A stretch of 64,000 bases of DNA from a phage, in NCBI GenBank assembly GCA_024790105.1, contig GCA_024790105.1_3053.1; one strand, written 5' to 3'. The notes beneath the pieces are model-generated. The model searched no databases, was not told the DNA's origin, and saw only the letters and a list, made by a program, of their open reading frames with translations. This document shows positions 4,625-12,511 of the stretch, one piece after another (positions within the stretch are counted from its first letter, which is position 1; each line of letters starts with the position of its first letter). The translations under genes were made by a program, and so were the position numbers.

Positions 4625-5127
4625 TTAAAAGTATTTTTTAAAACTCATCATAACTTTATCATCAACATCATTATCAATCTGTGCAACAAGGTAAGATGAC
4701 AGTTCTACTTCTTGTGGCGCGGATTGAACATTATCAGAATTAAGGTATTCACGAATCCAAGGATATGGATGTTTAACCGGAGCATCGGTAATCGGGCATG
4801 GAAGACCGCACTGTTTCATACGAGACACAGTCAAGTAATCAATAAAGCTCCACATGCTATTTGTATTTAATCCAGGAACATCACCATCTTTAAATAAATG
4901 AACTGCCCAATCTTTTTCTTGGCGGTTAACTTCCATGAAAATATCAACTGCTTCTTGTTCACACTCTTGAGCAATTTTAACCCATTCATCACTATCAGTA
5001 CCAGATTGAAGTTGACGAATAATATATTGGGTGCCTTTAAGGTGAAGCTGCTCATCACGTGCAATGAACTTCATAATCTTGGCATTACCTTCCATGATTT
5101 CCATGTTCTTATGGAAGTTAAAGGTAC
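4625..5127 (-). CDS. nrdB: ribonucleotide reductase small subunit, exon 2
   Basis: C-terminal R2 sequence (MEGNAKIMKFIARDEQLH...) in frame from the inferred 3' splice site after an intron-terminal G at 5128. Confidence 0.8.
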
Positions 5128-5694
5128 CGTTATGTTCGATTGAGCTCGCTAATTCTCAACCCGTTCTCTTATGAACTGCTACATATTACTATGCAGACCA
5201 GACTATATCACAATCCCAGAGGGATTCTCCCCATTTCGAGTCGCTTGACCCTACGTCCGAAGACTAGTCGTTGAACCTTGCTTTGCAATTGTCGCCGTGC
5301 CATCGTTTATATGTTGATGGTGATAAATCTTTCTTATCACAATATGGACAATTCAATTGAATTCTATTTGGATTTAATTTACATCTGTCATTATGTTTTA
5401 GATAAAATCCAGAACCTTTACCAATGTGACCGCAGAAATCGCATGTGATTTCTTTTTGTGCAGGATGGGTCCCGTTCTTAACCATTTCTAATGTTTTTGC
5501 TGATGTCTTTTCTTATGGTCTTCCATCAGAATCTTTAGGTATAGTTCAATTGTGCATCCTCTTAAAAGTATAATCATATTTATGTTATACTAATTAAAAG
5601 TGCAAGCAAAACCTTGGCTGCTAGTTTTCCTATAAAGGACTTTCCAGCAATTAAAGGAGTTTTCGATAAACGTTACCGTTTAAAGGCGCATTTT
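5128..5694 (-). mobile_element. group I self-splicing intron in nrdB (boundaries approximate)
   Basis: interrupts conserved R2 sequence between FYVSFA and FNFHKNMEIMEG; exon 1 ends in U; intron ends ...GAACAUAACG, closely similar to the td intron 3' end ...GAACAUAAUG; carries a degenerate ORF. Confidence 0.75.
5264..5485 (-). CDS. intron-encoded ORF, probable truncated homing endonuclease remnant (I-TevIII-like zinc-finger region)
   Basis: 73-aa ORF inside the nrdB intron with CxxC...C and CxxC cysteine clusters; no HNH catalytic motif present. Confidence 0.45.
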   Translation of the reverse strand: MVKNGTHPAQKEITCDFCGHIGKGSGFYLKHNDRCKLNPNRIQLNCPYCDKKDLSPSTYKRWHGDNCKARFND

Positions 5695-6370
5695 ACGCAA
5701 AAGATACATAAAAACGAATAGCTTCTAAGGCATTAATAACGTGTAAACAGAGGTAAAGAGACTTCATTAAAGCACGTTTAGCTTCGGCTTCTTGTTTAAT
5801 AGCTCGGTTTAAACGAAAGTCGGCATCAGGAGATTCTTTAGCTAGTTCTACAAATTCTTTAGCATTTTCCCAATAACGAGTTTTAATCAGAACATCATCA
5901 TAATAGCGACCGATAGATTCAGCACGTTTCATGATAGCTTCGTCTAATACAATCTCGTCAAATACCTTAGCAGGGTCATTGAACAAGTTACGCATGATAT
6001 GAGTATATGAACGACTATGAATAGTTTCACTAAAAGTCCATGTAGCAACCCATGTATCAAGGCTTGGGTCTGAAAGCAATGGCATAAGTATCGCAGATGG
6101 TGCACGCCCCTGGATGGAGTCTAACAATGACTGGTATTTTAAGTTATTGATAAATATAGATTTTTGATGTTCTGGGAGCTTGTTAAATTGTGCAGCATCC
6201 ATCATCAAGTTTACTTCTTCAGGACGCCAGAAAAATGATAAAGATTTCTCAATAAGTTCTTCAAATACTCGATGCCGTTGAATATCATAACGCGCAATAC
6301 CAAGACCTGAACCAAAAAACATGGGTTCTTTTAAAACATCAACTGGATTTGTATTAAAAACTGTGCTCAT
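5695..6370 (-). CDS. nrdB: ribonucleotide reductase small subunit, exon 1
   Basis: N-terminal R2 sequence ending ...EAIRFYVSFA; ORF stop lies inside intron sequence. Confidence 0.8.
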
Positions 6371-6421
6371 AAATTTTCCGCTTAGTTAATAGTTGGTGAC
6401 TCGTCCGTGAGTCAAATTATA

Positions 6422-7411
6422 TCATAATTTACAGGATGAACAATCTTCAGCTTTTGGAGTTTCTATTTCGTAATCATCAGTGCCAGAACCATCACGGGTA
6501 TTATGATAATAGAAATTTTTAATGCCATAATACCATCCGTATAGCATGTCATCAATCATTATTGACATTGGAACCTTTCCTTTTGGAAAAATCTGCGGGT
6601 CATAGTATGTATTCGCTGAAGCTGATTGACATACCCATTTCAGCATAATAGCTACTTGCGTAAGATAAGGTTTATTACCTTTCTTAGCTAATTTCCATGT
6701 ATAATCATAGAGGTCTATGTTATGCTCAATATTGGGCACGACTTGATTAAAGGAGCCCTCTTTTGATTCTTTAACAGAGACTGGTCCACGTGGAGGCTCG
6801 ATACCGTTTGTACTGTTAGAAACTTGGGAAGATGACTCACATGGCATAAGTGCTGATAATGTGCTATTACGGATGCCAAATAGCTTAAGGTCTTCCCGCA
6901 GCGCCGACCAGTCACAAACGTATTTTGGAGCTGCGATTTGGTCAATCTTTTTATTGTACCAGTCGATAGGTAATTCGCCTCGAGACCAACGAGTGTCTGA
7001 ATAATATTCGCAAGGTCCTTTTTCTTTGGCGAGCTTAATGGATGCTTTAATGAGTCCATACTGTAATCTCTCAAATAGTTCATGTGTTAAATCGTTAGCA
7101 TCTTCATAAGAAGCAAAGTTACTTGCCAGCCAAGCTGCATAGTTAGTAACACCTACACCAAGGTTACGACGCTTTTTAGCTTTTTCTGCTTCAGGAACTG
7201 GATATCCTTGGTAATCCAAAAGATTATCAAGAGCACGAACTTGAACTTCTGCTAATTCATTAATTTTATCTTGGTCTTGCCAGTCAAAATTGTCTAATAC
7301 GAATGCAGAGAGAGTACAAAGGCCCACTTCACCTTTGTTTTCAATAACTTGTATTGTTGTATACTCATCATCTTCGTAAAATTCATCTACAAATTCATAA
7401 TCAATATTCAT
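6422..7411 (-). CDS. nrdA: ribonucleotide reductase large subunit, C-terminal fragment (NrdA-b)
   Basis: 329 aa with own ATG; from GEVGLCTLSAF onward matches class Ia R1 C-terminal half, ending with the CSSCKL cysteine tail. Confidence 0.85.
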   Translation of the reverse strand: MNIDYEFVDEFYEDDEYTTIQVIENKGEVGLCTLSAFVLDNFDWQDQDKINELAEVQVRALDNLLDYQGYPVPEAEKAKKRRNLGVGVTNYAAWLASNFASYEDANDLTHELFERLQYGLIKASIKLAKEKGPCEYYSDTRWSRGELPIDWYNKKIDQIAAPKYVCDWSALREDLKLFGIRNSTLSALMPCESSSQVSNSTNGIEPPRGPVSVKESKEGSFNQVVPNIEHNIDLYDYTWKLAKKGNKPYLTQVAIMLKWVCQSASANTYYDPQIFPKGKVPMSIMIDDMLYGWYYGIKNFYYHNTRDGSGTDDYEIETPKAEDCSSCKL

Positions 7412-8111
7412 TTAATTCTTCTACCTTTTTTCGAGATATTCCTAGAGCTTTAGATGCTCGATGTATTGATTGATATTCTATACCGTTTATTTTTACAGCA
7501 ATTAAGTTATGGGGTTTTAATCCCTTTGGATGAGGTTTACTGACGTATTCTTGATTATCGTTTTCAGAGATATTATCAAGCTTTCGACACTTAAAGCCTT
7601 TATGTTGAGACCTTTTGCCTTTGCATACGGCCGACATTGCCGAAGCATTGAGTGAATGTAGTTCGCAAAATTCTCTTAGGCCTTTATGGATTTCTTCATG
7701 ACCGTCCGGGAAAGTAAATACCCAAGTTGTTTGAAGTTTTTCTCTATGCTCGTCAGTTGCCGGAATACCTTTGTTCCAAGCTGGTTTGCCTTTATTATTT
7801 TCAGATACAGAAATAGCCAATTTTCTTCTAAGCCACCCATGGCGTTTATTGGTGTTCTTTCGTTCAATATTATCTTCAGAATAAACACACATCATATTAG
7901 CGGCAAATACCAATTTATGATTATCTGGATATATCTTTACTAATAATTGATGAGCTATGTAATGCTCTTCGGGTGTCAAATCTACCAGGTTTTCCTTTGT
8001 ATCAGAACCACCAATACACAGAGGTATAATATGGTGTGATTCGGTATAGCAATCTAATTTTCTGTTCTTAGCTTTAGAAATAAGGTTATTGTAAATTTTA
8101 GAATAATCCAT
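7401..8111 (-). CDS. HNH homing endonuclease, Mob family (mobE-like), inserted within nrdA
   Basis: 236 aa; HNH motif HHIIPLCIGGSDTKENLVDLTPEEHYIAH; N-terminus MDYSKIYNNLI paralogous to mobA N-terminus; AGGA RBS; stop overlaps NrdA-b start. Confidence 0.85.
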   Translation of the reverse strand: MDYSKIYNNLISKAKNRKLDCYTESHHIIPLCIGGSDTKENLVDLTPEEHYIAHQLLVKIYPDNHKLVFAANMMCVYSEDNIERKNTNKRHGWLRRKLAISVSENNKGKPAWNKGIPATDEHREKLQTTWVFTFPDGHEEIHKGLREFCELHSLNASAMSAVCKGKRSQHKGFKCRKLDNISENDNQEYVSKPHPKGLKPHNLIAVKINGIEYQSIHRASKALGISRKKVEELNEY

Positions 8112-8156
8112 AACTTTTCCTCTTGTTATGGATTATTTATTAACGGTCTGTGTACT

Positions 8157-9590
8157 TTATTTGCTTTGAATTATACCGCCAGGATTAGCTTCATAAAACT
8201 TAGCTACATCCGACTTCTTAATTTTGATTAAACGGGTTTGTTGGCTATTCACATCATTTGTTGGAATAGCAATTTCACAGCACAAGTTACTCTGACGAAT
8301 TGGAGCTTTTTCACGAATAAACGGAGTGTAGTTATTCGTATTATCAATGAACTGTACATAAATCCTTGCTGTTCCTGAGCGTTCAGTCATGAGCAATTCA
8401 AATAGTTCACGGGCTTTAATACGCTTTTTGCGAATATTAGGGTCTTTTTCTGCTGCTTCGTATAATTCACGGAAACGGTCTTGGTCTTTAAAATAAGAAT
8501 AATAAAGCTCTCCACCCATTTCATGCGGACTGAACAAAGTAATGTAATCGTTCTTTCCGAATCGTTCCATCATTAGGTCATTCAGCTGGACGCCATAATC
8601 CATATGACGAATGCGGTTTTCTTCTACACCTTTGTTATTTTTCAAAACGAGAAGATTTTCAACTTCCAAATGCCAAATAGGATAATAAGCAGTAGCAGCG
8701 CCGCCACGAATTCCACCCTGTGAGCATGATTTAACAGCAGTCTGAAAATGTTTCCAAAAAGGAATAACACCAGTATGACGTACTTCACCCGTACCAATCT
8801 TAGAACCTTCGGCACGAATCATACCAACGTTAATACCAATTCCAGCGCGTTTAGAGATATATTCAACAATTGAAGCGGAAGCCTTATTGATAGACTTTAA
8901 TGAATCACCTGCCTCAATAACAACACATGAACTAAACTGTCGAGTCGGAGTACGACAACCAGCCATAATAGGAGTTGGTAATGAAATCTGTCGAGTAGAT
9001 ACTGCTTCATAAAAACGGATAACGTGTTTTAATCTATCAACAGGTTCATCTTGATGCAATGCCATTCCGATAGTCATAAATGCAAACTGTGGAGTTTCAT
9101 AAATTTGACCAGTGGTTTTATCTTTAACTAGATATTTTTCTTTTAATTGCATCGCCCCGGAATAAGTAAATTCCATATCCCGCTCGTGCTTAATTTTTGA
9201 TTCTAAAAATGTAATTTCTTCTGCTGAATATTTTGACAATAATTCAGGGTCATATTTACCTTCATTTACACAATAAGAAATATGGTCAATAAATGAACGT
9301 GGTTCATACTGCCCATAAACATGCTTACGAAGAGCAAACATTAAACAGCGTGCAGCTACATATTGATAATCAGGCTCTTCAACTGAAATAGAATTCGCAG
9401 CAGCCTTAATTACAATGGTTTGAATGTCATCAGTGGTCATTCCATCACGGAGATATGATTTAATATTTTCATATAATTCATAAGGATCTACAGATGTTCC
9501 TTCAGCTGCCCAAGATAAAACTTTAATAATTTTTTGCGGGTCAAAGCTTTGAGAAACACCACTACTTTTGATAACATTAATTAATTGCAT
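8157..9590 (-). CDS. nrdA: ribonucleotide reductase large subunit, N-terminal fragment (NrdA-a)
   Basis: 477 aa from MQLINVIKSSG (AGAGGA RBS); ATP-cone and catalytic region through SNLCCEIAIPTNDVNS, then 28 unrelated codons and a stop. Confidence 0.85.
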   Translation of the reverse strand: MQLINVIKSSGVSQSFDPQKIIKVLSWAAEGTSVDPYELYENIKSYLRDGMTTDDIQTIVIKAAANSISVEEPDYQYVAARCLMFALRKHVYGQYEPRSFIDHISYCVNEGKYDPELLSKYSAEEITFLESKIKHERDMEFTYSGAMQLKEKYLVKDKTTGQIYETPQFAFMTIGMALHQDEPVDRLKHVIRFYEAVSTRQISLPTPIMAGCRTPTRQFSSCVVIEAGDSLKSINKASASIVEYISKRAGIGINVGMIRAEGSKIGTGEVRHTGVIPFWKHFQTAVKSCSQGGIRGGAATAYYPIWHLEVENLLVLKNNKGVEENRIRHMDYGVQLNDLMMERFGKNDYITLFSPHEMGGELYYSYFKDQDRFRELYEAAEKDPNIRKKRIKARELFELLMTERSGTARIYVQFIDNTNNYTPFIREKAPIRQSNLCCEIAIPTNDVNSQQTRLIKIKKSDVAKFYEANPGGIIQSK

Positions 9591-9615
9591 AAGTCCTCTG
9601 TAGTAAGTTACCCCA

Positions 9616-9623
9616 TATAAATA
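9616..9623 (+). promoter_or_regulatory. T4-type late promoter TATAAATA
   Basis: exact TATAAATA 22 nt upstream of the GIY-YIG ORF ATG, followed by an AGGAGA RBS. Confidence 0.7.
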
Positions 9624-9645
9624 TAATTTTATATAGGAGAATATA

Positions 9646-10377
9646 ATGAAATCTGGAATATATGCTATTATAAACACTAAAACTAATAAGCACTATATAG
9701 GAAGTGCAATTAATTTTGAAGAACGATGGAAACGACACTTTAAAGATTTAGATAATGGAAATCATCATTCAATAAAGCTGCAGCGTTCTTATAATAAGCA
9801 TGGTAAAGATGCTTTCGTATGTAAAATCATAGAAGAACTTCCATACGAAAAATCTATCATTATTGAACGTGAAAATTATTGGATGCATGAATATGACTCA
9901 AAGGAAAATGGGTATAATATAGCAGACGCATCGTTTGGGGATACCTTATCTCATCACCCAAGAAAGCAAGAAATCCTTAATAAAATTTCAAATGCAATTA
10001 AAAATAATAATTCAAAATTATCACCAGAAGAACTTAAGCAAAAACATGGTAGACCTAGAGACATCAAAGGTAAAACTATAGAAGAACACTATGGGTTAGA
10101 TCGTGCTATAGAAATAAGCAAAAAGTTCCAAGAAAGAAACGCTGCACTTAATATGAAAGGCATCAATAATCCATATTACGGTCAGACGCATACCAATGAA
10201 GTTAGAAAACGAATTTCTGACTCACAGAGAGGTAAAAAGAAACCCCATCTAAGAGTAAGTATAGATGGGGTAGAATATCCAACAATAGCAGAAGCTGTGC
10301 GTCAAACCGGAATAAGCAGAAAACTTATATCTAAAAGATGTGCTCTAGATTGCTGGGAATCATATTTATACTGCTAA
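9646..10377 (+). CDS. free-standing GIY-YIG homing endonuclease, I-TevI paralog
   Basis: 243 aa; N-terminal ~100 aa about 70% identical to the I-TevI catalytic domain encoded at 11094-11831 (MKSGIY...YIGSA...RWKRHFKDL...NGYNIADA); different C-terminal DNA-binding region. Confidence 0.85.
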
Positions 10378-10623
10378 AGTTCTACATTCGTCATATTGTT
10401 CTTCCGTTAAAACAGTAATATCGTAGTAACAGTCAGAAGAAGTTTTAACTGTGGAAATTTTATTATCAAAATACTCACGAGTCATTTTATGAGTATAATA
10501 TTTTTTGCCATAAATGGTAATAGGCTGTTCTGGTCCTGGAACTTCTAACTCACTTGGATTAGGAAGTGTAAAAAGAACTACACCAGAAGTATCTTTAAAT
10601 CGTAAAATCATATATCCTCGCAA
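10366..10623 (-). CDS. hypothetical protein
   Basis: 85-aa ORF between td and the GIY-YIG gene; 3' end converges on the GIY-YIG ORF. Confidence 0.4.
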
Positions 10624-10634
10624 TTAAATTAAAA

Positions 10635-10946
10635 TTATACCGCCATTTTCCCTTTCAAGACACCGTGGGACTGATAATCTTTGAGAACGAAATCTTTAGG
10701 CCTGAGTTTAAGAACATATTCCAATTGTTCTTTAGTAGAAAGATAGCGGAATTTATAAGGCAATCCGCCTATTACCAGTTCACAAAGCTCTTTAGGTTCA
10801 CGACGCAAAATTTCTTTACATTGTTCTACGTGATTCATATAGATATGAGTATTACCGCCAGAAAATATCAAATCTCCAGGAATAAGATTACACATCTTAG
10901 CTACAATATGAACTAACGCAGCATATGATGCAATATTAAATGGAAG
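10635..10946 (-). CDS. td: thymidylate synthase, exon 2
   Basis: LPFNIASYAALVH... C-terminal TS sequence; exon 1 (183 codons) + exon 2 (103 codons) = 286 aa. Confidence 0.9.
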   Translation of the reverse strand, partial: LPFNIASYAALVHIVAKMCNLIPGDLIFSGGNTHIYMNHVEQCKEILRREPKELCELVIGGLPYKFRYLSTKEQLEYVLKLRPKDFVLKDYQSHGVLKGKMAV

Positions 10947-11962
10947 CATTATGTTCAGATAAGGTCGTTAATCTTACCCCGGAATTATATCCAGCTGCAT
11001 GTCACCATGCAGATCAGACTATATCTCCAACTTGTTAAAGCAAGTTGTCTATCGTTTCGAGCCACTTGACCCTACTCCCCAAAGGGATAGTCGTTAGGCA
11101 TTTATGTAGAACCAATTCCATTTATCAGATTTTACACGATAAGTAACTAATCCAGACGAAATTTTAAAATGTCTAGCTGCATCTGCTGCACAATCAAAAA
11201 TAACCCCATCACATGAAATCTTTTTAATATTACTAGGCTTTTTACCTTTCATCTTTTCTGATATTTTAGATTTAGTTATGTCTGAATGCTTATGATTAAA
11301 GAATGAATTATTTTCACCTGAACGATTTCTGCATTTACTACAAGTATAAGCAGAAGTTTGTATGCGAACACCGCACTTACAAAACTTATGGGTTTCTGGA
11401 TTCCAACGCCCGTTTTTACTTCCGGGTTTACTGTAAAGAGCTTTCCGACCATCAGGTCCAAGTTTAAGCATCTTAGCTTTAACAGTTTCAGAACGTTTCT
11501 TAATAATTTCTTCTTTTAATGGATGCGTAGAACATGTATCACCAAACGTTGCATCAGCAATATTGTATCCATTAATTTTAGAATTAAGCTCTTTAATCCA
11601 AAAATTTTCTCGTTCAATAATCAAATCTTTCTCATATGGAATTTCTTCCAAAATAGAACATTCAAACACATTACCATGTTTGTTAAAAGACCTCTGAAGC
11701 TTTATAGAAGAATGACATCCTTTTTCTAAATCTTTAAAATGCCTCTTCCATCTCTTTTCAAAATCTTTAGCACTTCCTACATATACTTTATTGTTTAAAG
11801 TATTTTTAATCTGATAAATTCCGCTTTTCATAAATACCTCTTTAAATATAGAAGTATTTATTAAAGGGCAGTCCTACAATTTAGCACGGGATTGTCTACT
11901 AGAGAGGTTCCCCGTTTAGATAGATTACAAGTATAAGTCACCTTATACTCAGGCCTAAATTA
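10947..11962 (-). mobile_element. td group I self-splicing intron (1016 nt)
   Basis: 5' end UAAUUUAGGCCUGAGUAUAAGGUGACUUAUACUUG... and 3' end ...AACAUAAUG recognised as the T4 td intron; exon 1 ends in U, intron ends in G. Confidence 0.9.
11094..11831 (-). CDS. intron-encoded GIY-YIG homing endonuclease I-TevI
   Basis: 245 aa, MKSGIYQIKNTLNNKVYVGSA...; recognised as I-TevI; lies wholly inside the td intron. Confidence 0.9.
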   Translation of the reverse strand: MKSGIYQIKNTLNNKVYVGSAKDFEKRWKRHFKDLEKGCHSSIKLQRSFNKHGNVFECSILEEIPYEKDLIIERENFWIKELNSKINGYNIADATFGDTCSTHPLKEEIIKKRSETVKAKMLKLGPDGRKALYSKPGSKNGRWNPETHKFCKCGVRIQTSAYTCSKCRNRSGENNSFFNHKHSDITKSKISEKMKGKKPSNIKKISCDGVIFDCAADAARHFKISSGLVTYRVKSDKWNWFYINA

Positions 11963-12511
11963 ACCTAAGAAAACATCTACACTGCGTTGGTACCATTGTA
12001 AATCAAGATGTCCATTACGCACATTGAACTGATAGAACATGTGGCAAGGAGGAAGAGCCATTTGATTGATTTCAGCTGGATTCCACGCCGACACAATTTG
12101 ACGCCTATCACTTGGTAGTTTTTTAATACGATCAATAACTTCTACAATTTGGTCTACACCGCCAAAATCACGCCATTGTTTTCCATAAATTGGACCAAGT
12201 TCACCACTATGATATCCTAGGTCTTTAGCCTGGTTTTCATAGTTATCGTCCCAAATAGTTTTACCTTGAATAAGACTACCATGAGTGCGAAGACGTAAAT
12301 CATTAACATTGGTAGAACCGGAAATAAACCATAGAAGCTCAGCAATGCAAGCTTTCCAGGCGAGCTTTTTGGTTGTTACCGCAGGAAAACCTTTGGTTAA
12401 ATCCCAACGCAATTTAGTACCGAACAAAGCAATTGTTCCTGTGCCCGTTCGGTCATCGGTTTCGTAGCCATTTTCAAAAATGTCTTTAATTAAATCTTGG
12501 TATTGTTTCAT
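11963..12511 (-). CDS. td: thymidylate synthase, exon 1
   Basis: MKQYQDLIKDIFENGY...QRSVDVFLG; conserved TS N-terminal region with active-site PPCH. Confidence 0.9.

Follow-up and report, generated by a model that had tools for sequence, protein, structure and literature searches.

Through 2013, the only phage described as carrying its nrdA gene, which encodes the large subunit of ribonucleotide reductase (RNR), in pieces was Aeh1, in which the gene is divided into nrdA-a and nrdA-b by the homing endonuclease gene mobE (Friedrich et al. 2007, PNAS, cited here as later papers report it; Crona et al. 2010/2011, NAR, PMC3045599; Gibb and Edgell 2007, 2009, J Bacteriol). In Aeh1, the nrdA-a product ends in a basic C-terminal extension (CTE) and the nrdA-b product begins with an acidic N-terminal extension (NTE); deletion of both tails was reported to reduce specific activity from 946 to 0.4 U/mg (~2000-fold) and to abolish dATP-driven formation of the (aa/ab)2 complex as well as holoenzyme assembly (PMC3045599). 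Crona et al. regarded the Aeh1 split as unique, reporting that the tails matched nothing in databases and that 1,200 nrdA sequences included no second split, and left the origin of the tails open (PMC3045599). Here we describe the nrdA locus in a stretch of phage DNA of 64,000 nucleotides (nt) (GenBank assembly GCA_024790105.1, contig GCA_024790105.1_3053.1; hereafter, the window), which represents a Tequatrovirus that infects E. coli (nearest record PEC04, ~96% identical). This locus is very probably an Aeh1-type nrdA in pieces that carries a homing cassette of ~913 nt.

Other described systems share some, though not all, features of this arrangement. T4 mobE, the product of which targets nrdB (PMC2988022, Table 1), encodes a Mob-family HNH nuclease in the same nrd neighbourhood, but is located between nrdA and nrdB, adds no tails and leaves nrdA whole. 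In the T4 gene 39/mobA/gene 60 system, an essential gene is interrupted by a Mob-type HNH gene that takes the place of a short target segment; the upstream fragment gains a CTE and the downstream fragment an NTE, and the cassette moves as a unit (Bonocora et al. 2011; bioRxiv 10.1101/2022.08.31.505936); this system differs in its target, the topoisomerase large subunit, in carrying a 50-nt translational bypass element, and in its longer (~44 amino acids [aa]) and unrelated tails. The split-intein or "fractured" nrdA genes are also broken near the active site, with their halves separated by a free-standing endonuclease gene (Dassa et al. 2009, PMC2677866), but these genes carry intein halves, break at C439 and are religated covalently, while fragments encoded in the window would associate non-covalently via short tails. 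Finally, td and nrdB, two genes of nucleotide metabolism, are interrupted at conserved sequences of the active site by group I introns with homing endonuclease genes (td/I-TevI and nrdB/I-TevIII), and a hairpin and a late promoter restrict endonuclease translation to late infection (PMC2988022); by contrast to the insert in nrdA, for which no ribozyme match was obtained, these introns rely on a ribozyme for repair of the interrupted gene at the level of RNA.

The coordinates and counts that an initial annotation, made from the letters of the window, had given for three open reading frames (ORFs), a spacer and an overlap were all reproduced by an ORF map and the minus-strand sequence (Table 1), and its central claim, that nrdA is divided by a Mob-type HNH gene into two ORFs translated separately, is supported; each of the two ORFs has a stop or start codon of its own. 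Pfam assigns the ATP-cone, the all-alpha domain and barrel positions 1-221 to nrdA-a (E=1e-67) and barrel positions 219-523 to nrdA-b (E=3e-65), and alignment to the intact 754-aa NrdA of phage Ozark likewise bore out homology of both fragments to the large subunit; 449 + 303 = 752 residues are kept from the intact protein, in agreement with the earlier estimate. Compared to the Ozark gene, the flanks of which are 97% identical, the net insertion is 904 nt and displaces three codons, Pro-Asp-Ala (PDA), between ...PTNDVNS and EIGLCTLSAF. The homologous part of nrdA-a ends ...SNLCCEIAIPTNDVNS, with the CTE codons coming next, and the break site, after ...CCEIAIPTNDVNS and before GEVGLCTL, lies in the loop between the equivalents of E. 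coli C439/E441 and C462. Residues C222, N435, C437 and E439 of the window, all in nrdA-a, are equivalent to E. coli C225, N437, C439 and E441, and nrdA-b holds the equivalents of C462, the Y730/Y731 pair and the C-terminal CxxC; judged by invariant alignment columns, the catalytic residues are complete across both fragments. Because the break falls between the C439/E441 and C462 equivalents, activity requires that the two fragments assemble, as had been proposed initially. The split is not an assembly artefact, since at least 80% of the split region is also present in 33 records of a phage collection.

Table 1. Features of the split nrdA locus and of neighbouring genes in the window.
Feature	Position	Strand	Remarks
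nrdA-a	9590..8157	-	477 aa; ORF map and minus-strand sequence
Part of nrdA-a matching intact NrdA residues 1-449	8244..9590	-	ATP-cone, all-alpha domain, first barrel half
CTE of nrdA-a	8157..8243	-	28 codons QQTRLIKIKKSDVAKFYEANPGGIIQSK and TAA; basic, isoelectric point (pI) 10.0; left end of cassette
Spacer, nrdA-a stop to HNH start	8156-8112	-	45 nt; contains AATAAATA and GAGG
Late-promoter-like motif AATAAATA	8141-8134	-	7 of 8 positions match T4 late consensus TATAAATA
Shine-Dalgarno GAGG of HNH gene	8122-8119	-	in spacer, inside hairpin loop
RNA hairpin (predicted)	8102..8137	-	13 bp; 5' arm 8137-8125 AAUAAUCCAUAAC; loop 8124-8115; 3' arm 8114-8102 GUUAUGGAUUAUU
HNH homing endonuclease gene (putative)	8111..7401	-	236 aa; AUG at 8111-8109
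nrdA-b	7411..6422	-	329 aa; ends CSSCKL
NTE of nrdA-b	7334..7411	-	26 codons MNIDYEFVDEFYEDDEYTTIQVIENK; acidic, pI 4.1; right end of cassette
Part of nrdA-b matching intact NrdA residues 452-754	6422..7333	-	begins GEVGLCTLSAF
Spacer, nrdA-b to nrdB	6371-6421		51 nt; no T4-type mobE
nrdB	4625-6370	-	broken by a group I intron
RF00028 match, nrdB intron	5179-5419		37.1 bits, E=1e-6
ORF in nrdB intron	5264-5485		73 aa
Free-standing GIY-YIG gene	9646-10377	+	243 aa
ORF overlapped by GIY-YIG gene	10366-10623		85 aa
td	10635-12400	-	contains a group I intron
RF00028 match, td intron	10995-11225		42.6 bits, E=2.3e-8
ORF in td intron	11094-11831		245 aa; I-TevI-type GIY-YIG

Aeh1 nrdA is split at the same point, in the loop between the C439/E441 and C462 equivalents, and shares with the window the gene order, an overlap of the HNH stop with the nrdA-b start (in the window, the nrdA-b ATG overlaps the HNH stop and the two ORFs have 11 nt in common), a spacer of nearly equal length (46 nt) and, in this spacer, a translation-blocking hairpin with a late-promoter-like motif, which in the window are predicted features. 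The two phages differ in that Aeh1 is a Cinqassovirus of Aeromonas, and their NrdA proteins outside the tails are just 52-59% identical. The 28 and 26 codons that flank the HNH gene, initially described as unrelated and non-homologous, proved to be conserved tails with homologues in Aeh1. The CTE of the window, which includes the peptide FYEANPGGIIQSK, has the core ...RLIKIKKSDVAKF... (...MLFKVKKSEVDKF... in Aeh1) and the NTE has the core ...EFYEDDEYTTIQV... (...EVYEDEEYTTVEI... in Aeh1), with LxKxKKS[DE]VxKF and YED[DE]EYTT, respectively, as motifs common to both phages. The more general CTE motif L[IVF]K[IV][KR]K[SK][DE][VI]xxF is kept in Aeh1 and, of the eight other lineages in the comparison, in all but L013 (C at [SK]); YED[DE]EYTT is likewise kept in Aeh1 and in all of the eight but L014 (VEDDEYTT). 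The opposite charges of the tails are conserved as well, with CTE and NTE pI values of 10.0 and 4.1 in the window, 9.8 and 4.1 in Aeh1, and 9.8-10.6 and ~4.1 across the eight lineages for which these were computed. Overall, the tails, the in-frame stop and the new ATG are conserved in ten lineages. For every pair of tail cores, the proportion of synonymous differences (pS) is 0.50-0.93, i.e., near saturation, while the proportion of nonsynonymous differences (pN) is 0.08-0.28; low pN with high pS suggests selection on the tail peptides rather than on DNA or RNA structure, and thus argues for purifying selection on the tails as peptides. A possible origin of the NTE as a partial duplicate of the replaced nrdA loop (TTIQVIENKGEV versus PTNDVNSPDAEI) is not supported, as the register fails against E. 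coli-type sequences.

Conservation of the tails also bears on whether the two halves could be rejoined at the RNA or the protein level. One alternative is that the insert represents a group I intron, possibly degenerate, with an HNH ORF, and that the halves are spliced to a 752-codon mRNA; td and nrdB in the same window carry such introns with endonuclease ORFs, joining of ...AATAGC to GGTGAA... would keep the frame, and ~200 nt of the insert are located outside the HNH ORF. Because of these ~200 nt, the initial argument that there is no room for a ribozyme is just suggestive, although its conclusion that the insert is neither an intron nor an intein stands. An Rfam scan at the gathering threshold (50 bits) yielded zero matches in the whole window and missed both known introns, which score below that cut-off; taken alone, this negative was uninformative, until a scan by E-value recovered the td and nrdB introns with RF00028 (Table 1). 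In the E-value scan, no RF00028 match was found in 6300-9700 at E<=10, and since the two introns in the same window act as positive controls, the negative result at nrdA is meaningful. Furthermore, the flanks of the HNH gene are kept as peptides while their synonymous sites are saturated, the in-frame stop and the new ATG are retained across the ten lineages, and tail peptides of Aeh1 have been seen by mass spectrometry in the mature proteins (PMC3045599). The covariance-model control and the protein-level selection on the tails are stronger evidence than the space argument, and we consider an intron extremely unlikely. It also seems very improbable that the tails are (mini) split-intein halves and that protein trans-splicing joins the two fragments, which is the case for the "fractured" nrdA genes of metagenomes. 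Split-intein nrdA fragments do exist (Dassa et al. 2009, PMC2677866), several ~350-aa NrdA C-fragments from a representative library start with an intein C-half (...ILVHN, with C(A)EI... after the junction), and a degenerate intein origin was raised as a possibility by Crona et al. (PMC3045599); however, these fragments break at C439, i.e., another site, tails of 28 and 26 aa are far below the length of intein halves, and Pfam identified RNR domains alone, with no Hint/intein domain in either nrdA product. The junctions are likewise without an intein signature, as the CTE begins QQT, with no opening Cys or Ser, and the NTE ends in ENK followed by the Gly of the homologous part, with no HN and Cys/Ser/Thr at this junction. 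In addition, the Aeh1 tails stay in the mature proteins of an enzyme that is (aa/ab)2b2 (PMC3045599).

The protein encoded by the gene between the nrdA fragments comprises an N-terminal HNH nuclease domain, a central I-HmuI NUMOD-like domain (PF22083 in Pfam) and a putative C-terminal helix-turn-helix (HTH); it matches phrog_655, a homing endonuclease family (E=5.5e-60), and combines a modular DNA-binding region with a catalytic motif, ESHHIIPLCIGGSDTKENLVDLTPEEHYIAH, that aligns with the HNH motif of McrA (6ghc). Homology to Aeh1 MobE extends over the full length (47.6% identity, 96% of length, E=9e-50; 49% identity in the C-terminal half). The comparison with T4 mobE that was initially suggested holds for the N-terminal nuclease domain (47% identity over aa 1-105), but the C-terminal region of T4 MobE is unrelated to that of the HNH protein, and the full-length orthologue is instead Aeh1 MobE. 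By homology, the HNH protein would be a homing endonuclease that cuts cassette-free nrdA. Two alleles of the HNH gene, which differ in the C-terminal half (window 7500-7800), are found among T-even carriers; the fPS-2-type allele (L006) is 71-82% identical to the window at gene positions 1800-2100 and 98-100% identical in the rest of the cassette, and phage F2 (L005) differs from the window solely at positions 1800-1900, a pattern that indicates probable mosaic recombination within the putative DNA-binding region.

Expression of the HNH gene may be controlled as in Aeh1. The spacer is predicted to fold into a perfect 13-bp hairpin (fold z = -2.2) with the HNH AUG in the 3' arm and GAGG in the loop, and AATAAATA, which had been recognized initially as a near-consensus late promoter motif and does match the T4 late consensus at all but one position, overlaps the 5' arm. 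In four diverged lineages, ATAAATA is invariant and the helix is kept, with 98% of hairpin cells paired (26-46% in slid-partner controls) and compensatory double changes at three base pairs. Aeh1 has an analogous hairpin, which differs in that it covers the Shine-Dalgarno sequence, while the hairpin in the window covers the AUG and has the Shine-Dalgarno sequence in its loop. Late transcription would start at AATAAATA; a late transcript starting a few nt past this motif would thus be without the 5' arm, and the predicted hairpin and the motif appear to be placed for such an escape. Late promoters combined with inhibitory structures have been described for I-TevI, I-TevII, I-TevIII, segB and Aeh1 mobE (review PMC2988022), and the predicted hairpin/late-promoter logic in the window matches that published for Aeh1 mobE and I-TevI. 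A scan for sigma-70 promoters and terminators gave no signal above background.

A clear recent spread between genera distinguishes the cassette in the window from that in Aeh1. The cassette (window 8243-7331) consists, in this order, of the CTE codons and stop, the spacer, the HNH gene, a new start with the NTE codons, and one replacement Gly codon. Over gene positions ~1300-2270, which include the CTE, spacer, HNH gene and NTE, the window is 99-100% identical to the Mosigvirus AV111, whereas flanking nrdA sequences are 67-85% identical per 100-nt window. Occurrence of the cassette is sporadic; 33 of the 827 records that match the locus contain most of the split region, and five phages carry the cassette among ~136 records with AV111-type nrdA (at least 95% identity). 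In one metagenomic carrier, nrdA-a is 98-99% identical to the intact nrdA of Klebsiella phages up to nt 1335 of 1425, which is where the tail-coding cassette sequence starts. These data, together with flanking tracts that vary among carriers, point to recent homing of the cassette, tails included. Every carrier has G[TA]GAAGTGGG[CG]CT[TC]TG directly after the NTE, where intact alleles of both genera have GCTGAAATTGG[AT]TT[GA]TG (also written GAAATTGG[AT]TT[GA]TG); compared with all intact alleles that were examined, recoding thus affects the first 15-18 nt of the homologous part of nrdA-b (GGTGAAGTGGGCCTTTGT), with ...AATGATGTGAACAGTCCTGATGCTGAAATTGGATTGTGT... at the intact site and GAAGTGGGCCTTTGT in carriers. 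Within 18 nt, six positions are substituted and two amino acids change. This recoded junction may represent the true right end of the cassette or else target changes that immunise the carrier. Farther out, RPN226, F2 and IME537 carry a tract of a third type (~50 nt), and in the window a patch of Mosigvirus type is present 55-85 nt upstream; such variable and patchy flanking tracts are consistent with the co-conversion expected of break-repair homing. HNH and NrdA divergence rank alike at deeper levels, which, together with the recent transfers, suggests that both long-term association within clades and recent lateral moves occur.

A search of a phage collection identified 35 GenBank/RefSeq records (~28 phages without RefSeq duplicates) with an HNH protein at least 88% identical to that in the window, always within nrdA; the next match is Aeh1, and lower matches represent unrelated loci beside uvsW. 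Carriers among the T-even coliphages include HY01, PEC04 and fPS-2, and GenBank entries of carriers already annotate two NrdA coding sequences and a homing endonuclease. While the initial annotation was correct with regard to the Aeh1 case, its view that a split nrdA had been described only in a distant Aeromonas phage does not stand, as the split is annotated in the 35 T-even records and as such nrdA insertions are mentioned, as unpublished, in a 2022 preprint (bioRxiv 10.1101/2022.08.31.505936); searches of the available literature library found no formal description of the T-even split, and the remark in the preprint was its sole trace. A metagenome-scale protein database contains a graded series of full-length HNH homologues. 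All six inspected homologues at 51-67% identity are located between nrdA-a (~475 aa) and an overlapping nrdA-b (~325 aa), and two homologues at 39-44% identity are located outside a split nrdA. A search with NrdA-b of a representative library clustered at 50% identity, in which the close family is not listed, yielded split-intein fragments of NrdA as well as two further splits in this loop, both in metagenomic contigs; nrdA is split here by a 281-aa GIY-YIG-like/NUMOD3 gene (phrog_314) in L019 (420-3762) and by a 146-aa ORF without a family match in L018 (1572-4520). In both contigs the CTE tends to be basic and the NTE is acidic, with the L019 tails faintly resembling the MobE-type tails (VAVKKERTREF; TQTTEEIV). 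Separately, many metagenomic NrdA C-fragments of ~350 aa (P0122, P0130, P0139, P0168, P0185, P0218, P0234, P0251, P0222) open with a split-intein C-half of the form ...VYDI.V......F.AN.ILVHN followed by the junction C, and appear to mark a second, distinct recurrent nrdA break point, at the equivalent of the catalytic Cys439.

By homology to the Aeh1 experiments, the products of nrdA-a and nrdA-b would associate into a heterodimer, and their oppositely charged tails would allow for formation of the (aa/ab)2 dimer and of a holoenzyme with NrdB, such that the tailed fragments would probably have reductase activity; if the fragments assemble via the tails, the insertion would therefore be phenotypically neutral. 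By hiding the AUG, the hairpin would block HNH translation on early and middle transcripts that read through, and late transcripts starting from AATAAATA within the 5' arm would permit it. The endonuclease would then nick or cut cassette-free nrdA alleles in mixed infections, and repair would copy the cassette in full, including its tails, and co-convert the flanks to a variable extent. Alternatively, the insertion may have inactivated nrdA, with the ORFs representing decaying remnants and the phage using host or anaerobic (NrdD) reduction. T4 nrdA is dispensable in the laboratory, and a non-functional split could therefore persist for a while; in addition, activity in the T-even carriers is extrapolated from Aeh1. 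This alternative nevertheless appears quite unlikely, given that both ORFs are intact, with all catalytic residues, in seven full-length lineages (in which the fused NrdA is 54-88% identical to that of the window), that the tails appear to be under purifying selection, and that the homologous Aeh1 enzyme was reported as fully active, with the 946 U/mg cited above (PMC3045599).

Several points, including the dispensability of T4 nrdA, nevertheless weigh against an Aeh1-type locus with a functional homing cassette. While the anatomy, the homology of nuclease and tails, the lack of a ribozyme or intein match, the hairpin covariation and the horizontal-transfer signature are supported directly, the late transcription start and the functions ascribed to the RNR, the tails and the HNH protein are extrapolated from Aeh1, the proteins of which are just 48-59% identical. 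Furthermore, the hairpin covariation comes from just four distinct sequences, and Aeh1, L011 and L013 have different, larger hairpins. The Mosigvirus-type patch in the window is not contiguous with the cassette and thus suggests mosaicism rather than a clean co-conversion tract. Finally, rates of nonsynonymous and synonymous change (dN/dS) in the tail cores were taken on segments picked for amino-acid conservation, which represents an ascertainment bias.

The ~8 kb spanning td, nrdA and nrdB contain four endonuclease genes or remnants. The free-standing GIY-YIG gene, the product of which is 46% identical to I-TevI over its full length, has the opposite orientation to all of the surrounding genes. 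It is separated from the nrdA-a start by 56 nt and shares 12 nt with the 3' end of the adjacent 85-aa ORF; a gene is present at the same place in Ozark, RPN226 and the metagenomic contig L008, with none in T4_ev151. The ORF in the nrdB intron corresponds to the last 73 aa (99% identical) of a 269-aa I-TevIII-like protein of relatives (e.g., Ozark), and this intron endonuclease is presumably truncated and defunct, as in T4. With regard to the nrdA-b/nrdB spacer, phage IME537 (L016, 571-1302) carries a 243-aa T4-type MobE there in addition to the intragenic HNH gene, and phage 236Ecol005PP (L017, 607-1398) has a gene annotated as DNA adenine methylase.

As the principle was published between 2007 and 2011 and further cases are mentioned in the 2022 preprint, the locus described here extends known biology rather than representing a new discovery; what is added is that the tails travel with the nuclease gene, as well as a signature of horizontal transfer, a conserved hairpin with a regulatory role by prediction and the extent of the family. 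The cassette, which continues to move from one phage genus to another, includes the tails as a conserved and apparently selected component. The tail module may be present across many Straboviridae lineages and be served by different nuclease classes, e.g., GIY-YIG/NUMOD3 in L019. It is conceivable, though we remain doubtful, that the basic and acidic tails constitute a portable, endonuclease-independent "protein-level splice" module and thus a third general vehicle for homing endonucleases beside introns and inteins; if this is true, the T-even carriers that infect E. coli would make testing by crosses and tail swaps direct. In practical terms, the locus provides a tractable system, as crosses of T-even carriers with T4 or T2 are possible in E. 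coli. More generally, our findings support the idea that a homing endonuclease can bring with it a peptide-based remedy for the gene that it breaks.

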